DNA of 64,000 nucleotides from an uncultured Collinsella sp. (GCA_900542315.1 UQMV01000006.1:4211-68210); one strand, 5' to 3'. Numbered from the stretch's first letter, positions 4,616 through 42,879 are shown. Program-made: numbers and translations. Notes: generated by a model not told the origin, from the letters alone.

Positions 4616-4732
4616 AACTATTCGCTCAACGATGTGTGTAGTACCTACGATGTGGCCGCTGGGGCCATGTGGCGCGTTGCCGCTAACTCTTCGGTCGCGG
4701 CGCGCCTCGGGTGTCCGATTCGATCACGGGCG

Positions 4733-15413: not shown

Positions 15414-15513
15414 ACGCCTGAGCGATCAACTCAATAGCGAGTGTTTACAGACATCATTTTCTATTCATGCAAAGGTTGCCGTGCGTCGACGCATCATTAA
15501 CCGCTTGTGATTA

Positions 15514-15546
15514 GGGCCGGGCCGAGCGTTACTGCTCGGCCCGGCC
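15514..15546 (+). terminator. GC-rich hairpin between the regulator and transporter genes (terminator or attenuator)
   Basis: gggccgggccgagc-gtta-ctgctcggcccggcc lies immediately 5' of the GGGAGGG RBS of the next gene. Confidence 0.4.
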
Positions 15547-15565
15547 AATGGGAGGGTGATGTTGC

Positions 15566-16447
15566 TTGAATGGAAATCTAATACGGCACGAGCTGTCCAA
15601 GATATTTGGCAATCCTATATTTGCGTTGACCCTTATGGTTGCAACTGCAATTTCGATGGCGGTCGCCATTGAGGCATGGTGGACGCTCGAGACTGAGCGC
15701 AAGCAGCTGTTATCTTTTGGCTACGGCATTGGTCTGCAGTCTCAGACATACCTCGGCCAAACGCGTGAAAGTTGCTTTGGCAACTGGATTGTTGTGAGCG
15801 CGAACGCGCCGTTGTTAGCGTCGGTGTTTTTCTATGCGCTGCCGTTGCTTGCCATGTTGGCCGGGTCGTGGTCATGCCTGTCCGAGCGTTTGGGCGGTTA
15901 CGAGGCACAGATCTGCACGCGTGTTTCTAGAAATGCATACGTGAAGGTGAAGATGCTGTCCGCCTTCCTCTCTGCGTTTGCGGTCACGGCTATTCCGCTA
16001 CTCGTGAACTTTCTGATTGTCTCCATGCTGTTTCCCGCGTATCTCCCCCGGGTCGACGAATCGACTTACGTCGGGCTCTATCTGCATAGCTATTTTTCTG
16101 GCCTGTTTTATTCCCGGCCTCTGTTGTACGTGCTGGTTTATACGCTGTTCGATGCGGTGACGCTGGGGGTTCTATCCATGGCCGTGACCGGTCTGTCGGT
16201 TGTGTTTCGCAGCAGAATCAAGGCGATGGTCGTTCCATATCTGATTATGGTTGCATGGCACTTTGTTAACGATTGGATTTTTAGCGTCCTTTCATGCGTT
16301 GGCTTTAACTGCAACATTCTTAACAGCATCAGGTCGGAATCACTAAATAACTGGCCCGACATTCGAGCGGGGTTTGCGGAAATCATTTTGCTGTTCGTCT
16401 TTTCTTGGATTTCCGCGAGATTCTTAAAAAGGCGCGAGGTGGTCTGA
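15566..16447 (+). CDS. ABC-2 family transporter permease (putative)
   Basis: 293-aa protein with ~6 TM helices and a TTG start after a GGGAGGG RBS; a second permease and an ABC ATPase follow. Confidence 0.5.
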   Translation: MNGNLIRHELSKIFGNPIFALTLMVATAISMAVAIEAWWTLETERKQLLSFGYGIGLQSQTYLGQTRESCFGNWIVVSANAPLLASVFFYALPLLAMLAGSWSCLSERLGGYEAQICTRVSRNAYVKVKMLSAFLSAFAVTAIPLLVNFLIVSMLFPAYLPRVDESTYVGLYLHSYFSGLFYSRPLLYVLVYTLFDAVTLGVLSMAVTGLSVVFRSRIKAMVVPYLIMVAWHFVNDWIFSVLSCVGFNCNILNSIRSESLNNWPDIRAGFAEIILLFVFSWISARFLKRREVV

Positions 16448-17283
16448 TGCTGTTTAGGCTGGTCGCCGCGGACCTGAGGACCGTTTTGAAGAAGAACATC
16501 ATTACTTTTATTGCGGTTGCGGCAGTGACCGTTGCGAACTTGGTGTACGCCTATGGATTTTCTTCTGTATATGGGGTCAGGACGGATGCCTTGGGGTTTG
16601 CGGATAATCTCGCGCTCGTGTTTGCCGGGTCTGCTCCGTTTGAGCCTAGGCCCGGGGTCATGTTTGTGCCTCCGTTAGGATGGCTATTCCTCATTCTGCT
16701 TATTCTCTATATGACACTCGATTATCCGACCGAATCGTTGCACGGGCTTGGTTTGCAAGCACTTGTTCGATGCCGGGCAAGAACCCTTTGGTGGGCCTCG
16801 CGTTTTATCTCAGTGGCGGCGGTAACGGCATTTTCACTGCTCGTGGTGGTTTGCGCTGTTGTGATTTGGAGCTTGGTGGTGAGCTCCTCGTTCAGCGCGG
16901 TCGTCCATGGCGAGTCGCTTCAGCTGGCTAATTTGGCGCCGTGGTTTCTCAAAGCTGCCGAGGCGGATGCGCTGCCGTTTTTCATAGGTCTCTTATTTGC
17001 TTTCGAGGCGCTTGCGTTTGCGCAGGCAGCGGTTGGGTTTGTGCTTGGGCCGTCAGTCTCGTTTGTGGTTTTAATGAGCTACCTGATCTGCTCGGCATAT
17101 GCACGACATTGGGCGCTATTGGGTAACGCCTTGATGCTGTTGCGCTGGGGCGGAATTGTCAAAGAGGGAATCGCGGCGGGCTCGAGCGTCTTGTCATCAA
17201 TTGGGCTTATGTCGTTATGTCTATCGCTGGGCGGACTGTGGTTTCGAAGGGCAGACCTTATAGAAAAGGGGGACAAGATATGA
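16447..17283 (+). CDS. ABC-2 family transporter permease (putative, second subunit)
   Basis: Polytopic membrane protein. Its ATG at 16447 overlaps the upstream stop (TGATG); the called ORF starts at 16405. Confidence 0.5.
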   Translation: MLFRLVAADLRTVLKKNIITFIAVAAVTVANLVYAYGFSSVYGVRTDALGFADNLALVFAGSAPFEPRPGVMFVPPLGWLFLILLILYMTLDYPTESLHGLGLQALVRCRARTLWWASRFISVAAVTAFSLLVVVCAVVIWSLVVSSSFSAVVHGESLQLANLAPWFLKAAEADALPFFIGLLFAFEALAFAQAAVGFVLGPSVSFVVLMSYLICSAYARHWALLGNALMLLRWGGIVKEGIAAGSSVLSSIGLMSLCLSLGGLWFRRADLIEKGDKI

Positions 17284-17924
17284 GCGTGATCGTTAGGGAC
17301 ATATCGAAGCGTATGGGCAAAAACGTTGTCCTGCGCAACGTGTCCATCGAGGTTGACCCTGGGACTGTGGTTGGGCTTCAGGGGATAAACGGTTCGGGCA
17401 AGACCATGCTCATGCGAGCGGTCTGCGGATTGATCAAGCCTACCGAAGGCGAGATCTCAATCGATGGTCAAAGGCTCGGAGTTGATATCTCGTTCCCGCC
17501 GAGTCTGGGAATGCTGATCGAGGCGCCCTCCTTTTTGGGATATCTGTCTGGCTACGACAATCTGGAGCTCATCGCTCAGATCAAGGGCGTTGCCACCCCC
17601 GAGGACATTCGCTCTGCCCCGCGGCTCGTGGGGCTCGATGCAGACGAAAAAAAGAAGTTCCGAGCATACTCGCTTGGGATGAAGCAACGTCTGGGGATAG
17701 CTGCGGCAATTATGGAAAAGCCGAAGCTACTTGTTCTCGATGAGCCAACAAATGCCCTCGACGAAGCGGGCGTGGAAATACTCAAGCGCGTTGTGGCGAT
17801 GGCGGCATCAACGGGTCGCGAGGTTATTCTGTCCAGCCATGACGGAGAGGTGCTCGAGGAGCTGGCCGATCGGGTTTACTGCATGCGCGACGGTGCCGTT
17901 GTGAAAGTTCGGGAAAGGTCGTGA
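17280..17924 (+). CDS. ABC transporter ATP-binding protein (short BcrA-like type)
   Basis: Walker A GINGSGKT, signature LSLGMKQRL, Walker B LLVLDEPT. The ATG overlaps the upstream stop (ATGA). Confidence 0.85.
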   Translation: MSVIVRDISKRMGKNVVLRNVSIEVDPGTVVGLQGINGSGKTMLMRAVCGLIKPTEGEISIDGQRLGVDISFPPSLGMLIEAPSFLGYLSGYDNLELIAQIKGVATPEDIRSAPRLVGLDADEKKKFRAYSLGMKQRLGIAAAIMEKPKLLVLDEPTNALDEAGVEILKRVVAMAASTGREVILSSHDGEVLEELADRVYCMRDGAVVKVRERS

Positions 17925-18589
17925 GCGCGATGAAGAAGACCCTGTGGACAAGAAGGGCGGTGTTTGCGCTTTTCGGCTGTGCTGCTACTGGCCTTGCGGG
18001 CATGAGGGTGAGCGTCGTTAACGGGAACCGGACGGTCATTCCTGAGAAATATTATGCAGAGGGCGAATGGCTCTCGATGGATGGGGCGTTTCTGGGGTCG
18101 AAGGATGTGGCGACTGACGGGTATTCGTTTTGCATAGACGGGGCAGAGCTGCTCACGCCGCGCGAGTATCTCAAGCGTGCGCATGATGATTATTCAAAAT
18201 ATGGCATCGTGGATACGAAAACGAAATTGAAGGACGCCGACATCGCGTGTGTTATCGCCGTAAAGATGCGTGTCAGGAATAAGGACAATGTCGAAGGCGG
18301 AATCAAAACGTATGTTTGGCATTTGGTGCCGGAGTCTGCGCCAAACTATGACTTTGTGGTCAATACCGATCTGATAACGCAGGCAATGCCGGCTCTGGGC
18401 GGCTCTGCTGCGTTTGCTGTACAGGTTGGGGCGGAGAACGAGTTGCTCGTCCCATTCATGATGCAGAACACCAACGACTATTTCGAAGATTACGAGACCG
18501 TTCGTTTTGAGAAGGCGTTTCCCGGGACTTACACGATGAAGATGACCGATCTGCCGGAGAGAAGGCTCTTAAGGTTTGAAGTGAAGTAA
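17921..18589 (+). CDS. secreted or lipo-anchored protein of unknown function
   Basis: Signal-peptide-like N-terminus (KKTLWTRRAVFALFGCAATGLAG). The start overlaps the ATPase stop, so it is co-transcribed with the transporter. Confidence 0.5.
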   Translation: MSAMKKTLWTRRAVFALFGCAATGLAGMRVSVVNGNRTVIPEKYYAEGEWLSMDGAFLGSKDVATDGYSFCIDGAELLTPREYLKRAHDDYSKYGIVDTKTKLKDADIACVIAVKMRVRNKDNVEGGIKTYVWHLVPESAPNYDFVVNTDLITQAMPALGGSAAFAVQVGAENELLVPFMMQNTNDYFEDYETVRFEKAFPGTYTMKMTDLPERRLLRFEVK

Positions 18590-26308: not shown

Positions 26309-26799
26309 CGGCGACTTTGGGATCGCTCGTGTGGTCTGGGTCGCTACCGGGTATTATTGCCGCACTGGCGTTGGCGCTGCCAGGCATAGCCGGCGTTGCC
26401 GCGGGGGCACTTGCGCGCGATCGGCGCTCGGGCTTCCTGCAGGGTGTGCTTGCGCTTTCTGCCTGCGAGGTTCCGGTGCTGGTTGTGGCTGCATGTAGCG
26501 TATTTTCCCAACGCGCCGTGATGGGCGGCCTTGTTGCCGCTCTGGTTGCAACCTATACGCTTACGTGGTTTTTGCTTGCTTTGCCTTTGAACTTCCCGTT
26601 TCGGCACCGCGACGCACAAAAGCCCAGATGGCGACTCCGCTTGCCGGTGGAGCCGCAGCTGCCTGTACTTTTGGCGGACCTGTCGAAGTATCGTCTGATT
26701 CTATTTCTACGACCAAGGAGGCCTAGGTCATGGCATCTCAAGTTGAGCTCACCCCATGCGGGGCCATGTTTGACATCTTTAAGCGCGCGGCGCATCTGA
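26305..26799 (+). CDS. hypothetical polytopic membrane protein (or frameshifted membrane tail of the upstream kinase)
   Basis: A GTG at 26305 overlaps the kinase stop (GTGA); the product has ~4 TM helices. An alternative reading is a +1 frameshift of the kinase. Confidence 0.35.
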   Translation: MTATLGSLVWSGSLPGIIAALALALPGIAGVAAGALARDRRSGFLQGVLALSACEVPVLVVAACSVFSQRAVMGGLVAALVATYTLTWFLLALPLNFPFRHRDAQKPRWRLRLPVEPQLPVLLADLSKYRLILFLRPRRPRSWHLKLSSPHAGPCLTSLSARRI

Positions 26800-27667
26800 G
26801 CCATATCGAGCTGTGCGGCTTGGTGCTTTCGTCCCGTCCGCTCGCCGACGGCCGCAGCCCGCAGAGCCGAGCCGCCGATCGCTCCTGGGTCTCGCGCTTT
26901 ATCGTTCGCGCGCCGGTCGGCACGCTTCAGCAGCGCCACTTTGCCGAATACGGTACCTCGGCTGCGCGTATTATGTCGCAACTGGCCCTGCGCCAGCGCA
27001 ATCCCATGGACTCCACGGCTGTGATCAATATGGTGTGCGGTTCTGCAGGTGAACCGATGGTACGCGCGCTCGAAGAGTGCCACCAGGACACGAATCTCTA
27101 TCGCAACGCGCTCGATCGCCTGTCCCAGGCGGCGGAACTCATGCCCGCCGAGCGCGCCGAGGCCGTGCTGGTGCTGTTTGTCGCCGTCGGTTGTTCGGCG
27201 GATGTGCGGTCCTCGGTGAACTATGCCATCGACTATGCGCACGCGACCTGTGGCGGAGGCACATCCACGCCGCGTTCGCTTGGCATGTCGATGACCGCGG
27301 GCGAACGCGAGCCCGCGCCGGCGCATCCGTTGGGCCTGCTGCGCGTGCAAAACGGCTTTGTGGTGAGTGCCCCGCGCTGGATTCAGCCGAGTGAGCAGGG
27401 TGTTGAGATTGGCGCGCTGGCCACTGGTGAGGGCGATATTACCGACGTCGGCGATGATGTCTCGGCTCGCCATGCCCACATCTAGTGCGATGCTCAAAAT
27501 ATCTGGCACGTCGAGGACTTGTCGTCCACCAACGGAACCGTGGTGGTAAACGGGGCCACGCGCGTTTGCATTCAGGTCGAGCCCGGCCGTTCCGCCCAGC
27601 TCAATCCCGGCGACGAGCTCAAGCTCGGCGAATCCACTACCTATGCCATCCTCTTCGGTGCCCTCTA
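26730..27667 (+). pseudogene. FHA-domain protein gene interrupted by an in-frame amber codon inside the FHA domain
   Basis: GGAGG RBS and ATG at 26730. The frame reads through TAG at 27483-27485, where the paralogous copy at 34210 has TGG (Trp). Downstream, the FHA motifs (DLSSTNGTVVNG...LKLG) continue in frame to 27667. Confidence 0.6.
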
Positions 27668-27790
27668 GCCGGCAGTTAGGGACGTTCCTTTTCTGCCGGC
27701 ACTTGGGGACACTCCTCGGCGCGCCAGAGCCAGTCGCCTGGGGATGGAGAGGCCATTTTGGCCCTTGGCGGTCAGTCGGGGCGAAACTAG
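27240..27790. repeat. direct repeat copy 1 (~550 bp, ~88% identical to 33985-34525), bounding the low-GC island
   Basis: Manual alignment of the FHA 3' coding portion plus ~120 bp downstream. Copy 1 has a 9-nt in-frame insertion and the amber codon. Confidence 0.8.
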
Positions 27791-28010
27791 AAGATCTTTC
27801 CGATTCGCGGCTGTTCATGCTTGTAGAGCATCTAAAACAATAGGATGTTATTCTGGAATATGCCGGGTGCGTGAACTTGCCTGTCTTAGCCTTAATAAGG
27901 TATAGGGGAGTTTGGCTCAGGGGTTCCGTCTTGTTCTTCAGCGCAGTATTGTGGGACAGATTTGCTGAGATTGGCGCCTTACACCGCAGGGCGCACGGAA
28001 GGCTCTCGAT

Positions 28011-28620
28011 TTGTGTTCTGGCCCCAGAATACAGGGCCTGATACTTACCAACTGTGGCATGGATGTAACATCTGTAGAAATCAACCCTTTTGTTGTCGAC
28101 CTTTGTAAGAAAAACACTGCCATCAACTCTTTGGATGACGAAACTAGGGTGCTTGAGGGGAGCCTTTACTCCCCTCTGAGAGATGACTCATGTTTTTCGC
28201 TTGTCGTTGTGAATCCTCCGTTACTGCCGATTCCGGATGAGATTCCTTATCCCTTCGTTTGAGATGGAGGACAATCGGGTCTGGATAAAACACTTCGTAT
28301 TCTTAAGGGTGGCGATACGCATTTAGAGAAAAACGGTAAATACTGCTAATAGGGGTGACGACGATGGTGCAGGGGCGACCCGCGATGCTCTCATCAATAC
28401 GTCGGATACTTGGGAAATCAGGTCTAGATGCATGTATGATGATGCTGTGTGGCTATTCAATTAATCCGCGTTCCGAATGGGTGCAGGGTATAGCTGCGAC
28501 ATCGTATGCTTTTGACCCGGCGCGATACTCAGATATTTCTGAGGCGGTTGACGAAGTTTATACGCACTATGCCGCGCAAGGCGTTTCGGAAGTTTGCACA
28601 TCTACGTTACGGGCTTAGGT
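28011..28620 (+). pseudogene. HemK/PrmC-like SAM-dependent methyltransferase remnant (frameshifted and truncated)
   Basis: Fragments FSLVVVNPP...DGGQSGLDKTLRIL are split over two frames, with no intact N-terminus. Confidence 0.45.
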
Positions 28621-28743
28621 TTCTTCAAGCGAGCAGGCCGGTTGCGTTATTTCGAGCGATTTTTCTAGTCTAGACGACAAAAGGCAAAGGATTTGATGGG
28701 TATAAAACGCGGACGTTTGTGGGCGGATGCTCAAATCTATTGT

Positions 28744-28787
28744 GGCAATCGGGCGGTTGAAAAAGATATTTCAACCGCCCGATTGCC
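28744..28787. promoter_or_regulatory. perfect 19-bp inverted repeat with a 6-nt loop upstream of the ABC exporter gene
   Basis: ggcaatcgggcggttgaaa-aagata-tttcaaccgcccgattgcc. Confidence 0.5.
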
Positions 28788-28933
28788 AGGTTCGTCGGAG
28801 GAGATGTCCGATTCCGACTCTCTTGTAGGAAGAGCTTGAGATCGTATTGGCCCAAGGCAATCTTAAAGCAGTCTCATTGGCAAATCTTCGCTCCTGTTGT
28901 GTTGAGGTGTAAGGTATCAGTGATTGATGTTTT

Positions 28934-30586
28934 GTGGCGGGTAGATTGGGGCCTTCCTTGATTCGATGCGTTCTCTCGAGGTTCATCAGAGCAAAAGGGG
29001 CTTTCGTCTTCATTGCTATCACGGTGATTGGAACCGCTCTCTCCTATGCCATGCCATACGTGAACGGGAAATTCTTAGATTTTCTTCTCGGTAACCGCAG
29101 CGAAAGAGACGCCGTACTCTTCGCGCTCCTGGTTGCGTCAATAGGAGTTTTCTCCACCCTCTTTACTTATTTTGCAGGAACACTTTCCATTCGCATAACC
29201 ACGAGACTTTCCTTTGATCTTCTCAGGGAGGCCGTCTTGCGTTTTGAAAGAGACGATTACTTGGTGAGTCGGACCATCGATCCAGCCTATACAACGCAAC
29301 GGATTATTTCCGACTCCAGCGTGGTCTCATCCTTCGTTTTGGCGAATTTTATCAGTGCGCCGCTGTCCATTGTAGCCATTCCCATCGTATTGCTTATCAT
29401 ATGGTCAATTGATTCAACTCTCGCGGTGTTTTCCATCATTCTCCTCATCGTGTATTTCTGTGTAATTACTGGGTTGAGGAAACTTTTGTATAGGGTCACG
29501 TATGAGAAGAAAGAGGCGGACAGCGCCTTTTACGCCGCAATTGCATCGCAGCTTAATCAGATTCTCAACATTCAACTGACATCTTCGTACGGCAAGAGCG
29601 AACAAGCGCTCGACGCTGGGTTTAAGAGCTATTTTCCCAAAGTTTTGCGCTCCGGAAAGCTATCATATTCTCTGACATCGCTCGATGGTCTTTTCGCAGC
29701 GTTGTTTCAAGCGGTGATACTTGTTGTTTCCGGAGTACGAATCATTAACGGAACTATGTCAATAGGCGAGTACACTATCATCGGTACATACTTCGCGGTT
29801 CTCTTTAAGACTTTGAAAAGTATGATGTCATTGTTCAAATCCTATCAAGATGCCAAAGCATCATGGGATAGGACGGCTATCGCGACGAGAGAAAAGGAGA
29901 GATCGGGGTGGAATCGGACCGATTTAGCTAAACTCGATGAAATAAATGACATTTCGGTATCTGATTTGGAATTCTCGGTTGCCCTTCCAGACGGATCTGT
30001 CCGAGAGGTCCTCGGCGGGTTTTCTTTCAAGTTTTCCGGTCCTGGTACATATTGCATAGTTGGGGAAAACGGAAGAGGCAAGACGTCACTTCTTTACTTG
30101 ATGCTCGGGCTATACTCATCGAAAGGCAAAGTAAAATACAACGGCGTGCCAATCGAAGAATGCGACTTGGATTACATACGTGCGAGAGAGATATCGTGCT
30201 GCCCACAGTCGTGCTTCGCGCCGGACGAAACGGTGAAAGAGCTGTTAGAGTATTTCGACACGCCCTTTTCTTCCTATCACCGGGGTGTAGATGGCCTACT
30301 TTCGCTGGAAAACAGCGTGAAGGAGTTGCTCGGGAAACGTTGCTCCGCGCTTTCGGGCGGTGAGCTGCGCCGAGTGTACTTATGGTCGGCGATTTCACGC
30401 AAGTCGTCAGTTTTGGTACTCGACGAGCCCACGACTGGGTTAGACGCTGTAAGCCGCGCCGAGCTTGCGGCCTATGTTAAGCGCAACAAGCAAAGCCAGC
30501 TGATCATCGTTGTCTCTCACGATGACGAGATGGTCGGCGCGGTAGAAGGGGTAGTGGATTTAGGCAGCATGTACCAGGGTAAATGA
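28934..30586 (+). CDS. ABC exporter, fused transmembrane and ATP-binding domains (peptide-exporter type, no C39 domain)
   Basis: Six N-terminal TM helices; Walker A GENGRGKT, signature LSGGELRR, Walker B VLVLDEPT; GTG start; AT-rich codon usage like the rest of the island. Confidence 0.85.
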   Translation: MAGRLGPSLIRCVLSRFIRAKGAFVFIAITVIGTALSYAMPYVNGKFLDFLLGNRSERDAVLFALLVASIGVFSTLFTYFAGTLSIRITTRLSFDLLREAVLRFERDDYLVSRTIDPAYTTQRIISDSSVVSSFVLANFISAPLSIVAIPIVLLIIWSIDSTLAVFSIILLIVYFCVITGLRKLLYRVTYEKKEADSAFYAAIASQLNQILNIQLTSSYGKSEQALDAGFKSYFPKVLRSGKLSYSLTSLDGLFAALFQAVILVVSGVRIINGTMSIGEYTIIGTYFAVLFKTLKSMMSLFKSYQDAKASWDRTAIATREKERSGWNRTDLAKLDEINDISVSDLEFSVALPDGSVREVLGGFSFKFSGPGTYCIVGENGRGKTSLLYLMLGLYSSKGKVKYNGVPIEECDLDYIRAREISCCPQSCFAPDETVKELLEYFDTPFSSYHRGVDGLLSLENSVKELLGKRCSALSGGELRRVYLWSAISRKSSVLVLDEPTTGLDAVSRAELAAYVKRNKQSQLIIVVSHDDEMVGAVEGVVDLGSMYQGK

Positions 30587-31179
30587 TGACAAGTGTAGTG
30601 CTACCCAACTGGCAGAGATAACAAAAAGGCGATGCAGATGCACGTAGCATTCAGGCGGTTCGGACTCGGTGCCTTCACGCCATCGCAACGCTTTCAGATA
30701 TAGTTCTCGTTCTCTTACTAAAGGAAACTTTAGTCTACGTCATCTTGTCGAGACAGAGGTGAAGCGAAGTGTTGTCGCGACGTATCTTATTCCAGGTGGC
30801 TCAGTATCAGCGTGAGAATCGCACCAAAGTGTACTTACGATTCTCGTGTCCCACGGACAACATGAGCTGAGCATTGAGGTTCCACCCTTTGCTGCAACTA
30901 CACGGGGTTGGACGGCAATGAATATGCCGGGCCGCATACCACGCGCAGCGGGGGTCCATGTCCCAGTATGTTGCCTACAGCAGCCTCGATGTCCACGCAC
31001 ACATCATCTCTGCCTTCGCGTTCAATCCATTTGCCGGAGAGTGCGAGGGTTGCCAGGCCGTAGAATTCGAGCCGAACAAATGAAATGCGGTATCAGCGCA
31101 TAGGATTAAACTGACGATTGCTTTGCACTGAGAATACGCTTGGAAAGCCGCTATGGGTGGCGGCCCGGGTTAAATAGAG

Positions 31180-31220
31180 AAGCCCGTCCGATCACTTTCA
31201 TGTGGCGAACGGTCGGGCTT
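31180..31220 (-). terminator. hairpin terminator candidate downstream of the peptide genes
   Basis: aagcccgtccg...cggtcgggctt stem with a T-containing tail on the minus strand. Confidence 0.35.
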
Positions 31221-31286
31221 CTTATTCCACTTGCCAATGCTCGGCTCATATTGGAAGAAAGCTACGCTAATGTTTGCGTGACACTC

Positions 31287-31394
31287 CTATTTTCTCCGAA
31301 GAAAGAGTCGGATAATGAAGAATAGAATTAAAAAAGGTGCCAGATATAACGCAAGTATAAAGGCTAATCCAACGAGACCTTGCAATAATGGCAT
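31287..31394 (-). CDS. 35-aa hydrophobic single-TM peptide (MPLLQGLVGLAFILALYLAPFLILFFIIRLFLRRK)
   Basis: ATG preceded by a GGGAGG RBS at optimal spacing. It sits just downstream of precursor gene B and is shorter than the ORF-track cutoff. Confidence 0.3.
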   Translation of the reverse strand: MPLLQGLVGLAFILALYLAPFLILFFIIRLFLRRK

Positions 31395-31472
31395 AACTCC
31401 TCCCAGACACGAGATTTTGGTATTTGTTCCCATCTTATTCTGAATTGGACCAAATAGTTCCTAGCCACAAAA

Positions 31473-31652
31473 CTACTCGTCAACTGGATCGCACCAATCT
31501 GCTGGCAAAACACAGCTTGATTCTTTATCGACATAGCACCAATCCGCAACAGGGCACTCGGCGATGTCGTAAAAATTGCATATATCAACTCCAAGACAAC
31601 AAGGCTCAACGGGAGGATGTTCATTTGAACCAACAGGATGGATATGCTTCAT
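31473..31652 (-). CDS. RiPP precursor peptide B (59 aa): MKHIHPVGSNEHPPVEPCCLGVDICNFYDIAECPVADWCYVDKESSCVLPADWCDPVDE
   Basis: ATG with an AAGGTGAGGAG RBS and seven Cys. It shares the MKHIHP N-terminus and core motifs with peptide A, and its frame is not in the ORF track. Confidence 0.55.
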   Translation of the reverse strand: MKHIHPVGSNEHPPVEPCCLGVDICNFYDIAECPVADWCYVDKESSCVLPADWCDPVDE

Positions 31653-31682
31653 AACAGCTCCTCACCTTAATCCAATTAGAGA

Positions 31683-31886
31683 CTACGTTTGATCAATGCC
31701 ACAGTGATCTACAACGCAGATGCTGCCGCCATCCATGTCATAGTCGCAGTAATCGTATGCACCACAGCCATCTGCTTTATCATAAACAGTACAGATGTCA
31801 GTAATGCCCAAGAGGCAGTCAAAAGACATCGGCTTCACGCCTGCCTCGTCGCCACTTCCTGGATTAATCGGATGAATATGCTTCAC
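31683..31886 (-). CDS. RiPP precursor peptide A (67 aa): VKHIHPINPGSGDEAGVKPMSFDCLLGITDICTVYDKADGCGAYDYCDYDMDGGSICVVDHCGIDQT
   Basis: GTG start 7 nt after an AAAGGGAGG RBS; six Cys and eleven Asp in the C-terminal 48 aa; lies immediately downstream of the rSAM gene. Confidence 0.55.
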   Translation of the reverse strand: MKHIHPINPGSGDEAGVKPMSFDCLLGITDICTVYDKADGCGAYDYCDYDMDGGSICVVDHCGIDQT

Positions 31887-32055
31887 GACTACCTCCCTTT
31901 GAGTGCAGAAAAACCTCAATATTGTGTATAACAAACCAAGATGTCTAGTTCACCATATTTCTAGAATGGTTTCGGCGAACGTAGCAATAAGCTTCGCAGA
32001 CGGTAATCAGAAGAACGAACACCTCCACAATGGTGACAGCAATGCGCTGAACCGC

Positions 32056-33444
32056 TTATTCCGATACAGTAGCTTCTCGTTGATTTTTCTCCTGCGAAGA
32101 TGAGTGGCGGGAAATAAGGTCAAAAGCCATCTCGTAGCACATCTTTCTATATTCACATGATGCAGGGTGTAGACTCTTGGGCAAGTAGCCGTGCTCGTCT
32201 GCAGCCTCCCAGCTACAGCCCCCACCACAGAAAGACCGAGCCCAACAGTCCGTACAGTCAATTCTTTTTTCGACACTCTGACTCCAGTTTTCAATATACC
32301 TAGTTTCGTCAATTCCGGTGACGATGTTGCCCATTTTGAATCGCATCATCCCGACAAACCTGTGACAGGGGTATACGTCCCCTTCGGGAGTCACGGAAAT
32401 AAAACGCCTGCCAGCCCCGCATCCGACAAAGGCGATCCTGTTGCTCATAATCAAATCAACTGCAGTTTTCAATGTTCTAAACAAGGGCTTTTCCCCTTGA
32501 TCAATCTGTTTGAGATATTGATCCGCCAAATCTATTAGGCCCGCCCTGATTTTGTTTAATGAGTGTTCGTCGAGTTTGATATTCTCATCGAATGAGCTCA
32601 CGGGCGAGAAGTAAATCCTTCTGAAGCCCATCTCTTTAAACTGAAGATAGTCTTCAACAAGGTTACAGTTATTATTTGTTAAGGTCGCTCTTGCGCCGAA
32701 GGGGAACGACTCGGAAAAACGACGAACGTTTTTGTCGATATCGGAGAAAGAGCCGCCTCCCGTCTTGTACGGGCGCGATGCATCGTGCTTGCATCCTGTA
32801 CCATCGAGACTAATCAGAACAGAAAACCCGTGCTCCTTGAAAGAATTCACAGCAGTGTCATTCAAAAGCGTTCCGTTGGTCGTAATAGAATAGGTAAAGT
32901 TTCTATTGGGGTATATTCTTTTTGAATAGTCGACCGTTTTCCATATCAGCGGCTCGTTAATCATGGGTTCCCCACCAAAAAAGACGATCGCAAGCGTTTC
33001 GTTTTCCGATGAACTTGCGACGAGGTAGTCGACCGCCTTGAAGGCTATCTCGTCTGTCATCAGCAGAGGAGACGTTCCATAATCTCCTTTACCGGCAAAA
33101 CAGTAACTACAACCAAGGTTGCATGCATGTGAAACGTGGAGTTCGATGGATCTAAGTTTTCGAGGCGTGTCTTTTGTTAAGAAAGTCCGCTCAGACAATC
33201 GTTGATACTCATCAATGTCGTCTTCAAGTTCTGCTATGGTCGTTTGGTCGTAGCCTTTCGCAGCAAGTGACTTTGTTAGCAACTTCGAGTTGACCGTTCT
33301 TCCCGATGCTTCAAATATGCGAAGCGCATCTTCTGATGCTTGGTCAACCTGAAAGCAATTGCGAGTGACCTCATCGAAGCAGTAACGACGATCACTTACT
33401 GAGAAAAAATGCATACGTTCCTCAATTTCATGCTGGACTGGCAC
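32056..33444 (-). CDS. radical SAM enzyme with a C-terminal SPASM domain (peptide-modifying maturase, anSME/QhpD-like)
   Basis: CNLGCSYC (CX3CX2C) near the N-terminus; C-terminal Cys clusters (CGAG...PCHRF, CTDCWARSFCGGGCSW); GTG start. Confidence 0.85.
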   Translation of the reverse strand: MPVQHEIEERMHFFSVSDRRYCFDEVTRNCFQVDQASEDALRIFEASGRTVNSKLLTKSLAAKGYDQTTIAELEDDIDEYQRLSERTFLTKDTPRKLRSIELHVSHACNLGCSYCFAGKGDYGTSPLLMTDEIAFKAVDYLVASSSENETLAIVFFGGEPMINEPLIWKTVDYSKRIYPNRNFTYSITTNGTLLNDTAVNSFKEHGFSVLISLDGTGCKHDASRPYKTGGGSFSDIDKNVRRFSESFPFGARATLTNNNCNLVEDYLQFKEMGFRRIYFSPVSSFDENIKLDEHSLNKIRAGLIDLADQYLKQIDQGEKPLFRTLKTAVDLIMSNRIAFVGCGAGRRFISVTPEGDVYPCHRFVGMMRFKMGNIVTGIDETRYIENWSQSVEKRIDCTDCWARSFCGGGCSWEAADEHGYLPKSLHPASCEYRKMCYEMAFDLISRHSSSQEKNQREATVSE

Positions 33445-33930
33445 TAACCTTGTTTATTGTTGCGCAGCTATAAAAAACCACCAGCGGGGATTCGGTGTGC
33501 GGCCCAATCGGACTCCCAAAAGGTTCTATTTGAGACTGGCAAGCTTTGTGTTGTTGGCACTTCGACAGCGCTCTTTATTCCAACATGGAGCCTCGCAGTT
33601 TGAGTCGACTTGCCTCTGGAAGGTCCGATCTTAACTTGATTTAGGATGAAAACAGATTACAGGCGCGCTCCTCTAGAAAGAAAGGAAACCAATCGCCGCC
33701 TTTCACCAGGAAAGTTTTTATAGCCCACCTCGAGCAAAATGAAAGATGCGAGAGCGATTGGGGAACAACGCGAATCTCCCCTTTTGGGTGGGAGCGAGCC
33801 TTCAGCCACCGGCGAACGACTCGCCCTGGTCAGAATCTGGAAGTGGTGCCGGGCCGCTTGGGCCTCCCCGGTGACTTCGTGGGGCTTACCTGCCTGACGT
33901 CGAGGAGTACATCCGCAAGATTCGTTCCCT

Positions 33931-34404
33931 ATGCCGTTTGCTCTCACGCCCGCCTTAGTTTCAAGTCGGGCGAGCCGCCGCGCTCATGCGACCCGTGGCG
34001 GCGACACGTCGACGCCGCGCTCGCTGAGCACATCTTCGGTCGCGGGCGAGCACGAGGTCGCGCCGGCGCATCCGCTGGGACTGCTGTGCGTGCAAAACGG
34101 CTACGTGGTGAGCGTCCCGCGCTGGATTCAGCCGAGTGAGGAAGGCGTTGAGATCGGCGCGCTGGCAACGGGGGAGGGCGGCATCACCGACGACGTCTCG
34201 GCCCGCCATGCCCATATCTGGTGCGACGAGTCTGGCGCATGGTTTGTCGAGGACCTGTCGTCCACTAACGGCACCGTGGTGGTAAACGGGGCCACGAGTG
34301 TGTGTATTCAAGTAGAGCCCGGCTGCTCCGCCCAGCTCGACCCCGGCGACGAGCTCAAACTCGGCGAATCCACCACCTACGCCATCCTGCTCGGCGCCCT
34401 CTAG
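33931..34404 (+). CDS. FHA-domain ORF, a 3' paralogous copy with an intact FHA domain and a novel short N-terminus
   Basis: Homologous to 26730-27667 from HATRGGDTSTPRSL onward, with Trp where copy 1 has the amber codon. Its first ~18 codons derive from island-side sequence. Confidence 0.45.
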   Translation: MPFALTPALVSSRASRRAHATRGGDTSTPRSLSTSSVAGEHEVAPAHPLGLLCVQNGYVVSVPRWIQPSEEGVEIGALATGEGGITDDVSARHAHIWCDESGAWFVEDLSSTNGTVVVNGATSVCIQVEPGCSAQLDPGDELKLGESTTYAILLGAL

Positions 34405-34525
34405 CCGGCAGTTAGGGACGTTCCTTTCCTGCCGGTACTTGGGGACACTCCTTGGCGCGTCAGAGCCAGTCGTCCGGGGATGGAGGGACCATTCTGGCCT
34501 TTGGCGGTCACCCGAGGTAAACCTT
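33985..34525. repeat. direct repeat copy 2 (partner of 27240-27790)
   Basis: See copy 1. Confidence 0.8.
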
Positions 34526-34855: not shown

Positions 34856-38395
<3,540 letters not shown>

Positions 38396-38406
38396 GTCTC
38401 CCGCCG

Positions 38407-38529
38407 CAGGATCTGAGGGCCAACCTTCGCGGACGTCCTCGGACATGAAAGAACCCCCGCTGCGCACTACGTGCGGCGGGGGTTCTTTCGTCCTGCGGAG
38501 TGTCCGCGAAGGTTGGCCCTCAGATCCTG
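38407..38529. repeat. ~120-bp compound palindrome immediately after PFOR, including a terminator-like inner hairpin
   Basis: Perfect 28-bp arms caggatctgagggccaaccttcgcggac / gtccgcgaaggttggccctcagatcctg flank an inner GC hairpin at 38447-38489. Confidence 0.7.
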
Positions 38530-38591
38530 CTACGACTACGTTCTCGGATTGTGTGGGCGGATGAAGGGCGTAGTTGGTCGGGTATTCCGTC

Positions 38592-38705
38592 CCCTTCGCT
38601 GTTTCGCGGCTTTGCCGCGAAACCTCGCGTTACTTTGGGGATGGATGGGGGCGTGGTTGTTGCGGCTTCTTATCCCTTTGCTTTTTCGCGGCTTTGCCGC
38701 GAAAC
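38592..38705. repeat. two copies of a 32-bp direct repeat, each holding a perfect 10-bp-stem hairpin (gtttcgcggc-ttt-gccgcgaaac)
   Basis: Copies at 38592-38623 and 38674-38705 differ at two positions. Confidence 0.6.
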
Positions 38706-38765
38706 GCGCAGCACCTTGGGAAATGCATTGATGCGTGGGCGGGGCTGGATTGCGGATTCAAATGG

Positions 38766-40127
38766 CTAGAGAGATATGGGTGCGAACGAGAAATCGTTAT
38801 TGGGGTCATCCTTTTCCATAAACTCATCGAGACAAAACGTCATGTAGATTGGAACGTACAGAACCTTGCCCTCTTTGCTGAGATTCTCGTGGCTCAGTAC
38901 AACGGCCTCGGGAATTTTGTACTCGCCCACACTCATCAGACGATCGAGGGCCGCATGCGCTCGAACTTTCTTGCCCGATTTGACCTCGATTGGGACAACA
39001 TGCCCGTGGGCGCCTTCGATCACAAAGTCAACTTCACCGACCTCACGCGTTTGGTAGTACCATGCATCCGCCCCGAGGGCAACGAGTTCCTGCGCGACCA
39101 CGTTCTCATAGAGACCACCAAGGTTGGGAGTTTTCATATCAAGATAGACAGCGCGTGCAGTGCTACCGGGGTATCGCGATGCGAGCATGCCTGTATCAGA
39201 CTCGTATAGTTTGAAGGCTGTCGTTTTCTCCGTCCTCTTGAGAGGACTCCGTGGCTCCGTCACCCTGGCGACCATCAATCCAACACCTGCGTTAACAAGC
39301 CACAGGAAATCCTGCTCATATTTTTTAAGGCGAGCTCCCTCACCCAGAGACGAAACAACAAAGCGATGAGACTCCGCCTCAAGCTGAACGGGAATTTGCT
39401 CAAAAATCGACCGAACGTTAAACGCTCGAGTCGATGCGTATTTTGAGATATCGCTTTTGTACTGATCGACCAGCTGAGTTTGAAGCTCACGTGTGCTCAC
39501 GAGCGAATAACCCGAATCAATATAATTCTGAACGACCTCCGGCATGCCGCCGCAAACGATATAAGCTCTATAGTTCTTGAGCATCGCCTCATGAATATAG
39601 TTTTCGACAGGATGTTTCTCGACAAGGCAGCTGCGAATGCCTGCAAGCACATTCTCGCTGACGCTGTTTGCCCAACAAAACTCTTCAAAATCCATCGGGC
39701 GCATAACAATGTGCTCTACATACCCCACCGGAAAAGAAGAGATCCCCTTAAACTCAGTCCCAAGCATAGACCCCGAGAAGACATAGCTAAAGCGCCCATC
39801 CTCGACCAACGCCTTCATGAGTGTAACGATCTGCGGATACTCCTGAATCTCATCGACAAAGACAAGCGTATCGCCCTCAACAAGCGGCGCATCCGCAAGA
39901 AGGGCTACGCGGTTGATAAAGTCAACGGAGTTCTTTGCGCCAACAAGTGCATTCCTTGCTTCGACATCGAGTAGTAAATTGACCTCAAAATACGAAGCGT
40001 AGTTGCTTTTTCCAAACGCGCGAATCGCATAGCTCTTGCCAATCTGACGCGCACCAGTAACGAGTAGTGCCTTATTGGAGTTATTCTTCCAGCTCAAAAG
40101 CCTATCAGTGACCTTACGGCGTAGCAT
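38766..40127 (-). CDS. AAA-superfamily ATPase with a DUF4143-type C-terminal domain
   Basis: Walker A LLVTGARQIGKS; Walker B VFVDEIQ. Sits in a lower-GC segment. The ORF-track start at 40229 reads through the upstream repeats; the likely start is Met35, which has a GGGGG RBS. Confidence 0.7.
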   Translation of the reverse strand: MLRRKVTDRLLSWKNNSNKALLVTGARQIGKSYAIRAFGKSNYASYFEVNLLLDVEARNALVGAKNSVDFINRVALLADAPLVEGDTLVFVDEIQEYPQIVTLMKALVEDGRFSYVFSGSMLGTEFKGISSFPVGYVEHIVMRPMDFEEFCWANSVSENVLAGIRSCLVEKHPVENYIHEAMLKNYRAYIVCGGMPEVVQNYIDSGYSLVSTRELQTQLVDQYKSDISKYASTRAFNVRSIFEQIPVQLEAESHRFVVSSLGEGARLKKYEQDFLWLVNAGVGLMVARVTEPRSPLKRTEKTTAFKLYESDTGMLASRYPGSTARAVYLDMKTPNLGGLYENVVAQELVALGADAWYYQTREVGEVDFVIEGAHGHVVPIEVKSGKKVRAHAALDRLMSVGEYKIPEAVVLSHENLSKEGKVLYVPIYMTFCLDEFMEKDDPNNDFSFAPISL

Positions 40128-40140
40128 TAAACCCCCAAAT

Positions 40141-40240
40141 GACAAAAATTGACAGATAGAATCGCCTAAAATCATACAAAAATTGGCAGATAATAACGTC
40201 GTAAATATACAAAAATTAGGAGATAGCAAAGGTTCGAATA
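40141..40240. repeat. three tandem ~33-bp repeats with core ACAAAAATTGRCAGATA upstream of the ATPase gene
   Basis: Units gacaaaaattgacagatagaatcgcctaaaatcat / acaaaaattggcagataataacgtcgtaaatat / acaaaaattaggagatagcaaaggttcgaatagg. Confidence 0.6.
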
Positions 40241-40368
40241 GGCCTCAAGGCCACTGAAACAGTGCTCTACTTTGCGAAGGGGCTGGGGACGCTGTTGGGT
40301 GCGTCTCCAGCCCTCTGATACTTACTTTGGATTCCGATGGTGGGGTGTTGGCGGTGCTGCTTGCTTGG

Positions 40369-40893
40369 TTACCTTGTCTCGCCGCTCTCTGTGCGTAGGC
40401 GGTAGCCGTGGACGAGGTCGCTGATGGCCGGCCAGGGAATCTGGCGGTCGACCCAAAATTGGAGCTGGACCAGATAGCGCTCGGTGGCGCGGGTGAGGGC
40501 TGCAAACTGTTCGTGAGTCTCTACCTGGGCGTAGAGGTCGCGGCTGTGGGCGAGGATTGCCGTGGTGTCATCCATTTTGCCGGTGACGTCGAAGGCGCCC
40601 GAGAACCAGTCGCACAGGCGCGCGGCGCTGTTGTTGATTGTTGCGAGGTCGGCGGTGCCGTCGTTGGCGTTCTCGTTGACCTGGGCTCGCAGGAGGGAGA
40701 GGGCGTCGGCGGCGTTCATACAGTAGCCGACGGTGAAGTTCCAGACGGCGAATTCGCGGCCTGTGTCGAGCTTGCGGCGGCGCATGTAGTCGATATCGCG
40801 CGGTTCCTCGAGCATCATTTGGCCGGCGAGGGCCTCAAGTGCAGTGGTGTACTCGGCAAGGTCGAGTGCGAGCAGGGTGTTGATATCCATCAT
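40369..40893 (-). CDS. hypothetical protein (helical, ~174 aa)
   Basis: ATG with a GGAGG RBS; the start abuts the stop of the upstream gene; no confident domain call. Confidence 0.4.
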   Translation of the reverse strand: MMDINTLLALDLAEYTTALEALAGQMMLEEPRDIDYMRRRKLDTGREFAVWNFTVGYCMNAADALSLLRAQVNENANDGTADLATINNSAARLCDWFSGAFDVTGKMDDTTAILAHSRDLYAQVETHEQFAALTRATERYLVQLQFWVDRQIPWPAISDLVHGYRLRTESGETR

Positions 40894-40895
40894 CT

Positions 40896-41312
40896 TTAGG
40901 CCTCCGCTTCGATCTCGACGATTTCGTTTTTGATGTACATGCCCTGGTTGTCCCAGACATTGCGGCAAGCAACGGCAAAGCGCTCGCGGTCGGCTTCGCA
41001 GATGCGGGCGAACATGTTGCAGGTGCCAAAGGGCTCGCACACGTCAAAGAAGATACAGATTGACGACCATCCGCCATACCAGCTCACGGCGCCCGCCGGC
41101 TCGTGAAAGACGGGGTTCTCGATGTGCTCGTAATTGGCGATGGGACCCGATACGGGATAGGTTACCTCGGCATCGCAGATCTTAGCCGAAAAGATACGTG
41201 ATTCGACCGGACAGGACGATTCGAACAGCTTACACGCCTCGGGAGCCTTGTCCCAGAGCATGTCGGCGAGAAACGTCTCGCCATTCAGCGTGATCTTGAG
41301 CATTTTTGTCAT
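40896..41312 (-). CDS. hypothetical protein, possibly DUF3830 (cyclophilin-like)
   Basis: 139 aa beginning MTKMLKITLNGETFLADMLWDKAPEACKLFE with a GAGGAGG RBS. The longer called ORF is an upstream extension. Confidence 0.4.
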   Translation of the reverse strand: MTKMLKITLNGETFLADMLWDKAPEACKLFESSCPVESRIFSAKICDAEVTYPVSGPIANYEHIENPVFHEPAGAVSWYGGWSSICIFFDVCEPFGTCNMFARICEADRERFAVACRNVWDNQGMYIKNEIVEIEAEA

Positions 41313-41916
41313 AGTAAGGACCTCCTCAATCCGTCGCTCAAGGGGTTCGCTGGCGGATAAGGAGAAGACAGCAGCGGGGTCGCCGAACCCAAACTTCACG
41401 ACAGGTCTCTGTCGCCCCAGCCCGCGCTGTTCTTCGCTAAAGTACCATGCCGCAATTGCGCGTGCAATATCAGTTTTTGATTTTCTGGAAGCGGCAATCG
41501 ACGAGACGGCTCGCCGGCTGCCGGCCGACGCGCGGCATAGGCACTCATCTATATTCCTTATGCTGGATGAAAAACGCCATGTTATTGCAGGGCTGCATAC
41601 TCGTCCAATAAGTGCATAGAATCTCGTATAGTGCGAGTAAGATATTACGCTGCCTGTTTTGTGTTTAGCAAAGATACAGTTTGCATAATCTGGTCTAATC
41701 CCTGCTCTATTAAAATAAAGTCGCACGTAAATGGCGTAAACATATCTGAGCTGGGGTTCTGTACGCTGAGCGGATAAAAACGACCGTTCACCGTTCAACT
41801 ATTTTCAAAATGAATAAAATGAGCGATAAAGAGAATATAAACCTTAATAAACTCGCGTATTGCACGGACGCGGGTTATTAATGGGTTGTAGGCCTTTTAC
41901 AGAAAGGATTCCAGCA

Positions 41917-42879
41917 ATGTCTAAGCCTCTTGGCAAGCCCGATCGTATTGTCGTCGCCCTTGGCGGCAACGCCCTCGGCAACAACCCCGTTGAGCAGATC
42001 GAGGCCGTGAGCAACACCGCCCACGCCCTTCTCGGCCTGATCGAGCAGGGTAACGAAATCATCATCACCCACGGCAACGGTCCGCAGGTCGGCATGATCC
42101 AGAACGCCTTCGCCGCTGCCCACGACGCCATCGGCACCCCCGAGATGCCGCTGCCCGAGTGCGGCGCCATGTCCCAGGGCTACATCGGCTATCACCTGCA
42201 GCAGGGCATTGGCCGCGAGATGCACAAGCGCTATAAGCGTTGGCATGCCGCAACCGTCGTCACCCAGATCGAGTGCGACCCGGACGATCCCGCGTTCAAG
42301 AACCCGACCAAGCCGATCGGCCCCTTCTACACTGAGGAGCAGGCCAAGGAGTTCATGGCCGAGGATCCTTCCAAGGTCTTCGTCGAGGATTCCGGCCGCG
42401 GCTGGCGTCGCGTCGTCGCTTCCCCCGATCCCAAGAAGATCGTCGAGGCTGACTCCATCCTCAACCTTCTCGACAACGAGTTCATCGTCATCGCCTGCGG
42501 TGGCGGCGGCATCCCCGTCGTCCGCGACTACGAGAACAAGGGCTGCTACAAGGGCGTTCCCGCCGTCATCGACAAGGACCTGGGCGGCGAGCTGCTGGCC
42601 GAGGACTGCGATGCCGACGTCCTGTTCCTGCTGACCGCCGTTGAGCATGTCGCCATCAACTTTGGCAAGCCCAACCAGGAGGAGCTCGAGGACATCACCG
42701 CCGACGAGGCCGAGCGCCTGGCCGACGAGGGTCAGTTCGGCAAGGGTTCCATGGAGCCCAAGGTCCGCGCCGCCATCAAGTTCGCCCGTTCCCGCAAGGG
42801 CCGCACCTGCATCATCGGCGCACTGGACAAGGCCGCCGAGACCATGGCCGGCCTCTCCGGTACCCGCATCCACGAGTAA
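41917..42879 (+). CDS. arcC: carbamate kinase
   Basis: N-terminus MSKPLGKPDRIVVALGGNAL and GNGPQVG and ACGGGGIPV motifs. Confidence 0.9.
   Translation: MSKPLGKPDRIVVALGGNALGNNPVEQIEAVSNTAHALLGLIEQGNEIIITHGNGPQVGMIQNAFAAAHDAIGTPEMPLPECGAMSQGYIGYHLQQGIGREMHKRYKRWHAATVVTQIECDPDDPAFKNPTKPIGPFYTEEQAKEFMAEDPSKVFVEDSGRGWRRVVASPDPKKIVEADSILNLLDNEFIVIACGGGGIPVVRDYENKGCYKGVPAVIDKDLGGELLAEDCDADVLFLLTAVEHVAINFGKPNQEELEDITADEAERLADEGQFGKGSMEPKVRAAIKFARSRKGRTCIIGALDKAAETMAGLSGTRIHE

Follow-up and report, generated by a model that had tools for sequence, protein, structure and literature searches.

The 64-kb window analysed here, a stretch of 64,000 nucleotides from an uncultured Collinsella sp. (GCA_900542315.1 UQMV01000006.1:4211-68210), contains a low-GC (45-53%) island at positions 27789-33981 that is enclosed by two direct repeats of 0.55 kb. 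The minus strand of the island carries, in this order, the gene of a radical S-adenosylmethionine (rSAM) enzyme with a SPASM domain, two genes for short peptides (pepA and pepB), a gene for a 35-aa membrane peptide, and a GC-rich hairpin. The plus strand encodes an ATP-binding cassette (ABC) exporter, whose gene converges on the peptide operon, and a broken methyltransferase gene lies 5' of the exporter. The island block forms the GC minimum of the window, with a GC content of 0.43-0.54 across ~27.8-33.7 kb and of 0.60-0.66 in both flanks. The initial annotation of this DNA described an AT-rich island, which holds, in surroundings of more than 65% GC, which is a slight overstatement; the island features it listed were all found where it had placed them. 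With moderate confidence in the statement as a whole, we read the island as a compact, horizontally acquired gene cluster for ribosomally synthesised peptides with post-translational modification (RiPPs) of the ranthipeptide kind, in which Cys-Asp thioethers would be installed and the products exported. That this is a RiPP cluster with two substrates is, judging from the sequence comparisons, much more certain than the specific cross-link chemistry. The features of the island are as follows, RBS denoting the ribosome-binding site:

32056-33414, minus strand: predicted rSAM/SPASM peptide maturase, 452 aa (PF04055, PF13353, PF13186), with an alternative GTG start at 33444
31683-31886, minus strand: pepA, candidate precursor A, 67 aa, GTG start, 6 Cys, RBS AAAGGGAGG
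31473-31652, minus strand: pepB, candidate precursor B, 59 aa, ATG start, 7 Cys of which 6 are conserved, RBS GGTGAGGAG
31287-31394, minus strand: membrane peptide, 35 aa, single-pass (MPLLQGLVGLAFILALYLAPFLILFFIIRLFLRRK), RBS GGAGGAG
~31173-31226, minus strand: terminator-like hairpin, 3' of the membrane-peptide gene
28934-30586, plus strand: ABC exporter, 550 aa, fused transmembrane and ATPase domains (PF00664 ABC_membrane, PF00005 ABC_tran)
~28011-28618, plus strand: decayed methyltransferase of the HemK/MTS type, fragments in two frames with stops

Both peptides open with the same leader start, MKHIHP, and their C-terminal halves are rich in Cys and Asp as first described, with six Cys in pepA and seven in pepB. 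Each of six Cys can be paired with an Asp on its C-terminal side, at offsets of +3 to +6 in pepA (C24-D30, C32-D36, C41-D45, C47-D50, C57-D60, and C62-D65) and of +3 to +5 in pepB (C19-D23, C25-D29, C33-D37, C39-D42, C47-D52, and C54-D58); the seventh Cys of pepB, C18, is replaced by Tyr in other alleles and in orthologues. In an alignment of 30 family peptides, in which mean column identity is 33%, the six Cys are invariant and each is followed, 2-6 residues towards the C-terminus, by a conserved Asp (Asp or Asn in one case). Asp is invariant at three of these putative acceptor positions and reaches at least 90% at two; the remaining one, where Asp and Asn alternate, stays below 90%. The core consists of C-x(2-5)-D-x-C-x(2-3)-D units, three in tandem, in which the Cys-to-Asp spacing is X2-X5 and not uniformly X3 as in the CX3D motifs modified by the maturase PapB. 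The proposal that an Asp- and Cys-rich core of this kind is the substrate type of the neighbouring enzyme is borne out by this pattern. Both open reading frames (ORFs) also have the strong ribosome-binding sites attributed to them and follow the rSAM gene, although not directly as claimed, given that 169 nt separate its stop codon from the start of pepA.

The peptides are found beside the rSAM gene in every locus of the family for which enough flanking DNA is available. The enzyme family is discrete at 39-73% identity, the next drop, to ~33%, leading to the SCIFF maturases. In seven relative loci, with rSAM identities of 73, 67, 48, 44, 43, 40, and 39%, a homologous peptide or peptides adjoin the enzyme gene. 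In the two closest loci (L081, 73%; L082, 67%), peptides of both the A type and the B type are encoded, a small membrane peptide and an ABC exporter orthologous to that of the island come next, and the pepA orthologues start with ATG. Two peptides each are present in L086 (44%), L087 (43%), and L088 (40%), and one in L079 (39%). L085 (48%) carries an A-type peptide at 6122-6301 whose 3' end is cut by a Transposase_mut/MULE insertion; the same locus contains a second, different rSAM/SPASM gene at 4441-5691. The A/B pairing is old, the A-type C-terminus CG[IT]D and the B-type CDPxD occurring together in L081, L082, L087, and L088, and it suggests that the product may have two components. This co-conservation down to 39% rSAM identity supports the initial assignment of the two ORFs as substrates of the enzyme.

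Selection on the peptides points in the same direction. In comparisons among the window, L081, and L082, saturation is seen at synonymous sites (proportion of synonymous differences, pS, 0.8-1.0), and the proportion of nonsynonymous differences (pN) in the cores is only 0.10-0.23; the resulting pN/pS is 0.12-0.23 for pepA and 0.10-0.18 for pepB, a constraint at least as strong as that on the rSAM gene. The stretch from MKHI to the core is less constrained (pN/pS 0.43-0.75). Because orthologues exist elsewhere and core pN/pS is this low at saturated pS, the peptide ORFs are real genes rather than chance reading frames. Both are annotated just as 'hypothetical protein', pepB on more than 1000 contigs. 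When 1.84 billion representative proteins were searched exhaustively with a profile (E ≤ 0.001), 46 peptide clusters were recovered, many of which begin with MKHIKLLN. A weak match of pepA to SapA (saposin; E = 0.005, under the cut-off) was dismissed as an artefact of the Cys pattern.

The enzyme itself almost certainly starts at the ATG at 33414. The ORF given initially, 32056-33444 on the minus strand, encodes 462 aa from a GTG start; its reading frame, CX3CX2C motif, and SPASM Cys stand, but its length does not, because all homologues and the NCBI annotation begin at the downstream ATG (MHFF..., 452 aa), which is preceded by the ribosome-binding site GAGGAA. Pfam identifies Radical_SAM (PF04055, 54 bits), Fer4_12, and SPASM (PF13186, 24.5 bits, cut-off 21.5). 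Invariant in the family alignment are C98, C102, and C105 of the CX3CX2C motif and exactly seven SPASM Cys (332, 350, 387, 390, 396, 400, and 420). The enzyme thus combines CX3CX2C with a SPASM domain, which, by sequence, would supply the two auxiliary clusters that mark the ranthipeptide class. Also invariant are three Arg residues, R337, R352, and R384, which are candidate counterparts of PapB R372, an Arg implicated in recognition of the acceptor carboxylate.

Among NCBIfam models, the top family is PapB (NF047865), at 273 bits against a cut-off of 340, followed by the SCIFF maturase ScfB (TIGR03974; 267 bits, cut-off 425), the nif11 maturase (261 bits, cut-off 518.7), and QhpD (TIGR03906; 241 bits, cut-off 453). 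The anaerobic sulfatase-maturing enzymes (anSME, TIGR03942) score 116 bits (cut-off 349), and the sactipeptide maturases RumMC and StsB 121 and 65 bits (cut-offs 625-720), placing the enzyme nearer to the ranthisynthases (PapB, ScfB, and QhpD) than to the sactisynthases. Among solved structures, the SCIFF maturase CteB (5wgg, E = 2.4e-64) comes nearest in sequence. An AlphaFold2 model built on an 11-sequence family alignment (mean predicted local distance difference test score, pLDDT, 85) places strands at residues 2-6, 9-14, and 19-23 ahead of helices at 25-36, 43-52, and 57-73, so that an N-terminal beta3-alpha3 RiPP recognition element (RRE) is predicted in the enzyme. With Foldseek, the model superimposes on CteB over its full length (template-modelling score 0.81-0.87, 444-455 columns) and on anSME over ~380 columns compared to ~445 for CteB, the shorter superposition being explained by the lack of an RRE in anSME. 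We conclude that the protein is not an anSME- or Cfr-type enzyme, a possibility named at the outset as one that could overturn the RiPP reading.

These features suggest a mechanism for which the best-studied relatives provide the precedent. The leader of CteA binds the RRE of CteB as a beta-strand (PMC6231123, PMC8326336), which makes the shared MKHI start a plausible recognition strand: the predicted RRE of the Collinsella enzyme would bind the MKHI... strand of the pepA and pepB precursors. In CteB, a coordination site on auxiliary cluster I is open, and the substrate Cys binds there (PMC6231123, PMC12373016), and the seven invariant SPASM Cys of the island enzyme match those of CteB; the donor Cys thiolate may likewise sit on the open iron of auxiliary cluster I. 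PapB forms six thioethers between Cys-S and Asp-C-beta in CX3D motifs, tolerates CXnD with n = 0-6, binds the Cys at auxiliary cluster I (AC1), and needs its acceptor on the C-terminal side of this Cys (PMC9413430, PMC12373016). By analogy, an S-C(beta) thioether to Asp would form up to six times per peptide, with a mass change of approximately -12 Da. The fused ABC exporter would then carry the products out, and the 35-aa membrane peptide may confer immunity or have an accessory role. Given that the island encodes no leader peptidase, the leader might be kept, as is apparently the case in SCIFF loci, or cut by a host protease. The products could act as bacteriocins or signals, possibly as a two-peptide pair.

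The history of the island can be read from its borders. Three features define them:

26730-27668, plus strand: resident FHA-domain gene (PF00498 on the right-copy ORF), whose 3' part is the left repeat
27237-27788, plus strand: left direct repeat, the native copy, ~95% identical to the single copy of 51/52 empty sites
33982-34524, plus strand: right direct repeat, a foreign FHA 3' fragment, ~81% identical to the single copy of 51/52 empty sites

The two repeats, initially put at ~550 bp, are indeed present and are 82-87% identical to each other; each consists of the final ~430 bp of the FHA-domain gene plus ~120 bp of downstream DNA. At 27483-27485, the right copy and 52 other Collinsella loci read TGG (Trp), whereas the FHA gene of the window contains an in-frame TAG, which is a nonsense mutation specific to this strain or else a sequencing error. 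Empty sites were sought by gapped DNA pattern matching that retrieves only the unoccupied site. Fifty-two contigs from human-gut metagenomes have zero island DNA and a single 0.55-kb copy, through which the left flank (97.8% identical) and the right flank (97.2%) are joined. Because the single copies of 51 of these 52 resemble the left repeat rather than the right one, the right repeat came in with the island. The exception to simple absence is L181 (OJUG01017346.1, 1698-2277), which matches the left copy at 100% up to alignment column ~200 and from there on matches the right copy at 100%, and which bears the signature of a precise and recent deletion of the island through recombination between the flanking repeats.

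Where the island is present, it is nearly uniform. In a scan of one genome per GTDB species, at least 79 loci had an rSAM gene of 95-100% identity, nearly all in Collinsella or Coriobacteriaceae; 4315 sequences belong to the intact rSAM cluster defined at 90% identity, and one exact sequence occurs on at least 1000 contigs. Exact protein matches carry only the names 'radical SAM/SPASM domain-containing protein', 'hypothetical protein' for either peptide, and 'ABC transporter ATP-binding protein'. Across ~70 species-level genomes, the island interior (27800-33981) has 99.7-99.9% nucleotide identity; in the same genomes the repeats have 94-95.5%, the adjacent intergenic DNA 94.7%, and the neighbouring, highly conserved PFOR gene 97.6%. 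Repeats and flanks have diverged as the genomes have, and this contrast with the interior suggests recent homogenisation or spread between species, the breakpoints lying at the repeats or inside them. In the methyltransferase, middle, and peptide segments there is also a second, minority allele of ~95.6-97.9% identity. In L081, L082, and L088 the clusters are likewise islands of 45-50% GC, at unrelated chromosomal sites of high-GC genomes, and transposases adjoin the clusters of L081 and L085. The horizontal acquisition proposed from base composition is therefore supported by the 52 empty sites, by a near-clonal island in diverged flanks, and by low-GC relatives at other sites; from these comparisons, the island is an insertion, truly mobile or accessory and still on the move.

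How it moves is less evident from its content. Within the island, no integrase, peptidase, tRNA, or Rfam element was found, and the whole 64-kb window contains no tRNA gene. Megablast of the island against plasmid and phage collections returned no match, and the best matches of the rSAM enzyme were merely 32% identical, both by tblastn against plasmids and in a scan of IMG/VR; the island is therefore carried by none of the elements in these collections. Entry may have occurred by homologous recombination via the FHA segment, either as a Campbell-type single crossover or as a flanking double crossover. An exact-sequence look-up of the neighbouring PFOR protein for island-free strains gave no match. 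Many Logan contigs with island genes measure 6.5-6.8 kb, as long as the island itself. A circular, excised form was considered for them; more simply, assemblies likely stop at the island edges, where strains present together diverge. One island-only contig of 5.4 kb (L040, CAVEDI010000271.1) is binned as Oscillospiraceae, probably through mis-binning of a short and compositionally odd contig, the alternative being a real transfer beyond Collinsella.

The remaining genes of the island accompany the peptides to varying degrees. The convergent exporter, found as originally described, has orthologues adjoining the clusters of L081 and L082 (72% and 48% identity). It lacks a C39 peptidase domain, given that its alignment covers positions 150-664 of peptidase-containing bacteriocin-exporter profiles, and no peptidase was found anywhere in the island, in agreement with the earlier statement that it encodes no leader peptidase. 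The membrane peptide, which varies more among Collinsella loci than any other island gene, has counterparts at a like position in L081 (49% identical) and L082. It is followed, as noted initially, by a hairpin with the stem GAAGCCCGACCG...CGGACGGGCUUC and then UCUAUUU; the 131-nt stretch around it folds at -42.8 kcal/mol (z = -2.6). Consensus scans for promoters and terminators performed no better than on shuffled sequence, and the terminator scan missed this hairpin probably because its apical part exceeds the loop limit of 3-8 nt. The methyltransferase matches PF05175 at E = 8e-5 (22.7 bits, cut-off 23) and NCBIfam HemK-type models below threshold; stops and frameshifts around its VVVNPP motif in three-frame translation bear out the view that it is decayed.

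Two stretches of the island, ~0.7 kb between the exporter and the hairpin (30587-31286) and ~0.57 kb 5' of the rSAM gene (33415-33981), contain no recognisable gene, RNA family, or significant promoter match, and are as conserved as the rest of the island (99.65-99.86%). No Rfam family was found across 26.5-35 kb, and the leftover small ORFs of 30.6-31.3, 32.0-32.3, and 33.6-33.9 kb have no Pfam match. Elsewhere in the window, two more stretches of lower GC content, at 14000-18000 and 38000-42000, have values of 0.54-0.56 against a background of ~0.60-0.66.

Several observations weigh against an active cluster that makes Cys-Asp thioethers. The enzyme falls under the curated cut-off of every NCBIfam family, and no Pfam or NCBIfam model matches the family peptides even at E ≤ 10. 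Within Collinsella, nonsynonymous polymorphisms are about as frequent as synonymous ones, which may reflect very recent spread. About 9 of 69 loci in Collinsella genomes (~13%) have a truncated or frameshifted rSAM ORF, and 468-aa variants from metagenomes are frameshifted near residue 385 and have lost the CX2CX5CX3C SPASM motif; these broken ORFs are either real pseudogenes or errors in assembling metagenome-derived genomes. The island has no peptidase and a decayed methyltransferase. It is also reduced relative to the distant loci of the family (L079 and L086-L088), which contain an ABC_membrane/ABC_tran exporter gene and in addition an ABC ATPase, a membrane protein of ~500 aa that Pfam does not match, and a CPBP/Rce1-like protease; given these extra genes, the Collinsella island is a reduced version of the cluster. 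The CPBP protein might serve as the leader peptidase that the island lacks, or in immunity.

The first two of these observations bear on the chemistry. Since the enzyme scores under the cut-off of all families, its specificity is not readable from homology, and the cluster might produce a RiPP with a different modification: sactionine links (S-C-alpha), links to residues other than Asp, or one or two links only, with the Asp residues serving solubility, metal binding, or target recognition. The enzyme is about equally near to CteB/ScfB and to PapB, and SCIFF maturases in vitro formed a single Cys-Thr link despite six available Cys (PMC8326336). However, each invariant Cys of the family peptides has, 2-6 residues further towards the C-terminus, a conserved acidic residue of its own, the geometry that PapB requires (PMC12373016), and the one variable acceptor alternates with Asn, to which NxxcB links Cys and which is a known C-beta acceptor in NxxcA (PMC8326336). 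The sactisynthase models also score far lower than the ranthisynthase models. We therefore regard a different modification as unlikely, albeit as the most serious of the alternatives to Cys-Asp thioethers.

The other observations could be taken to mean that the island is a decaying, non-functional remnant of a larger bacteriocin cluster, hitch-hiking by recombination and yielding no active product. The module of ABC ATPase, permease, and CPBP protein found in distant relatives is lost, the methyltransferase is a pseudogene, a leader peptidase is lacking, some loci have a broken enzyme gene, nonsynonymous polymorphism matches synonymous polymorphism, and the island itself has been lost by recombination between its repeats. 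Yet the great majority of the ~70 species genomes retain the enzyme, the two peptides, the membrane peptide, and the exporter in intact form, the intact rSAM cluster comprises thousands of sequences, and strong ribosome-binding sites have been kept. The same reduced layout also recurs at 73% and 67% rSAM identity, with peptide cores under strong purifying selection, and we consider a dead remnant improbable. Action on a non-peptide or protein substrate, in the manner of anSME, Cfr, or QhpD and with the small ORFs unrelated to it, finds some footing in the detectable homology to anSME and QhpD, but is effectively refuted by peptides that travel with the enzyme across 39-100% identity, by scores far under the cut-offs of both families, by a predicted RRE that anSME lacks, and by the absence of qhpA/B/C or sulfatase genes nearby.

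A cluster of the ranthipeptide kind, if it is active, would be of interest for several reasons. Collinsella is a prevalent genus of the human gut, in which the island is very widespread, and to our knowledge none of its products has been characterised. Should the predicted chemistry hold, the peptides would, next to freyrasin, provide a second natural scaffold with dense Cys-Asp cross-links and would connect leaders of the SCIFF type with cores of the PapA type. The near-clonal island in diverged genomes offers a clean case of gene-specific spread within a gut genus that involves no integrase, phage, or plasmid. Given that island-positive, empty-site, and freshly deleted strains all exist, this presence/absence polymorphism constitutes a natural experiment on the ecological role of the peptides. 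A more far-reaching picture would be that of a distinct ranthipeptide family founded by these two peptides, with a SCIFF-type MKHI leader and three tandem bicyclic Cys-Asp units that amount to six thioethers per peptide, acting as a two-component A/B bacteriocin or signal whose island is sweeping through human-gut Collinsella by homologous recombination, without an integrase, and shaping strain competition; we offer it tentatively, as an idea that falls short of being probable.

A literature search for ranthipeptides, RiPPs, or radical SAM enzymes in Collinsella or Coriobacteriia, with published RODEO datasets lying outside the comparison, returned nothing specific, and the system is best placed by comparison with characterised ones. 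The island enzyme matches anSME at a third of the required score and differs from it by its predicted RRE. QhpD is a homologous rSAM/SPASM protein that links Cys to Asp C-beta and Glu C-gamma (PMC8326336). The island enzyme is far below the QhpD cut-off, however, and qhpA and qhpB are absent, no quinohemoprotein genes having been found in the island; its substrates are stand-alone peptides of ~60 aa with leaders, unlike the enzyme subunit QhpC.

The SCIFF system of Clostridia shares more with the island. Its peptides have an N-terminal leader motif MKHI(K)xL(N) and six Cys, no protease adjoins the peptide genes, and ScfB/CteB have the same architecture of RRE, rSAM, and SPASM domains, the RRE of the island enzyme being predicted from the model. 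The initial annotation did not recognise the MKHIHP leader, and this has to be revised: its start is that of the SCIFF leader (MKHIKTL), the leader consensus of the island family in the 30-sequence alignment is MKHIxLLN, and profile comparison (hhalign) aligns the first 11 columns, and only these, with SCIFF (P = 2.3e-4, probability 45%), leaving the core unaligned. Genuine SCIFF peptides, encoded beside annotated SCIFF maturases, start with MKHIKTLTGKS and read MKHIKTLTGKSLKDTFAKGGCGECQTSCQSACKTSC..., and those in L089 and L090 carry PF13165. In contrast, the family peptides of the island fail the SCIFF models PF13165 and TIGR03973 even at E ≤ 10 (13 peptides searched in Pfam and 5 in NCBIfam), and the island core, rich in Asp, has no GGCGECQTSCQSACKTSC motif. 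The maturase, at 267 bits against 425 for ScfB, is ~33% identical to named SCIFF maturases, and the island is an accessory element with a dedicated ABC exporter, whereas the SCIFF locus is conserved and housekeeping-like.

The freyrasin system PapA/PapB of Paenibacillus polymyxa provides the closest parallel for the core. PapB is the top NCBIfam match of the enzyme, PapA likewise has six Cys each with an Asp on the C-terminal side, and the leaders are of similar length, ~18-23 residues in the island peptides with the first core Cys at 19-24, and C19 in PapA (PMC10739248). The differences are equally clear: the enzyme remains under the PapB cut-off, the core consists of three variably spaced units rather than six in-line CX3D repeats, there are two paralogous precursors, the leader starts with MKHI and that of PapA with MLKQIN, and the host is an Actinobacterium in which the cluster is a mobile, low-GC island. 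By their own cut-offs, the SCIFF, PapB, and QhpD families thus exclude the system, although it belongs to the ranthipeptide kind by every testable feature. Because its MKHI start is that of the SCIFF leader, we place it as a new precursor family within that kind; of the candidate new RiPP system proposed initially, the new family is real, and a new kind of RiPP it is not. Similar to freyrasin in the logic of its core but not in its sequence, it adds an undescribed family of precursors, which join a leader start of SCIFF type to a hexa Cys-Asp core and usually come as A/B pairs.

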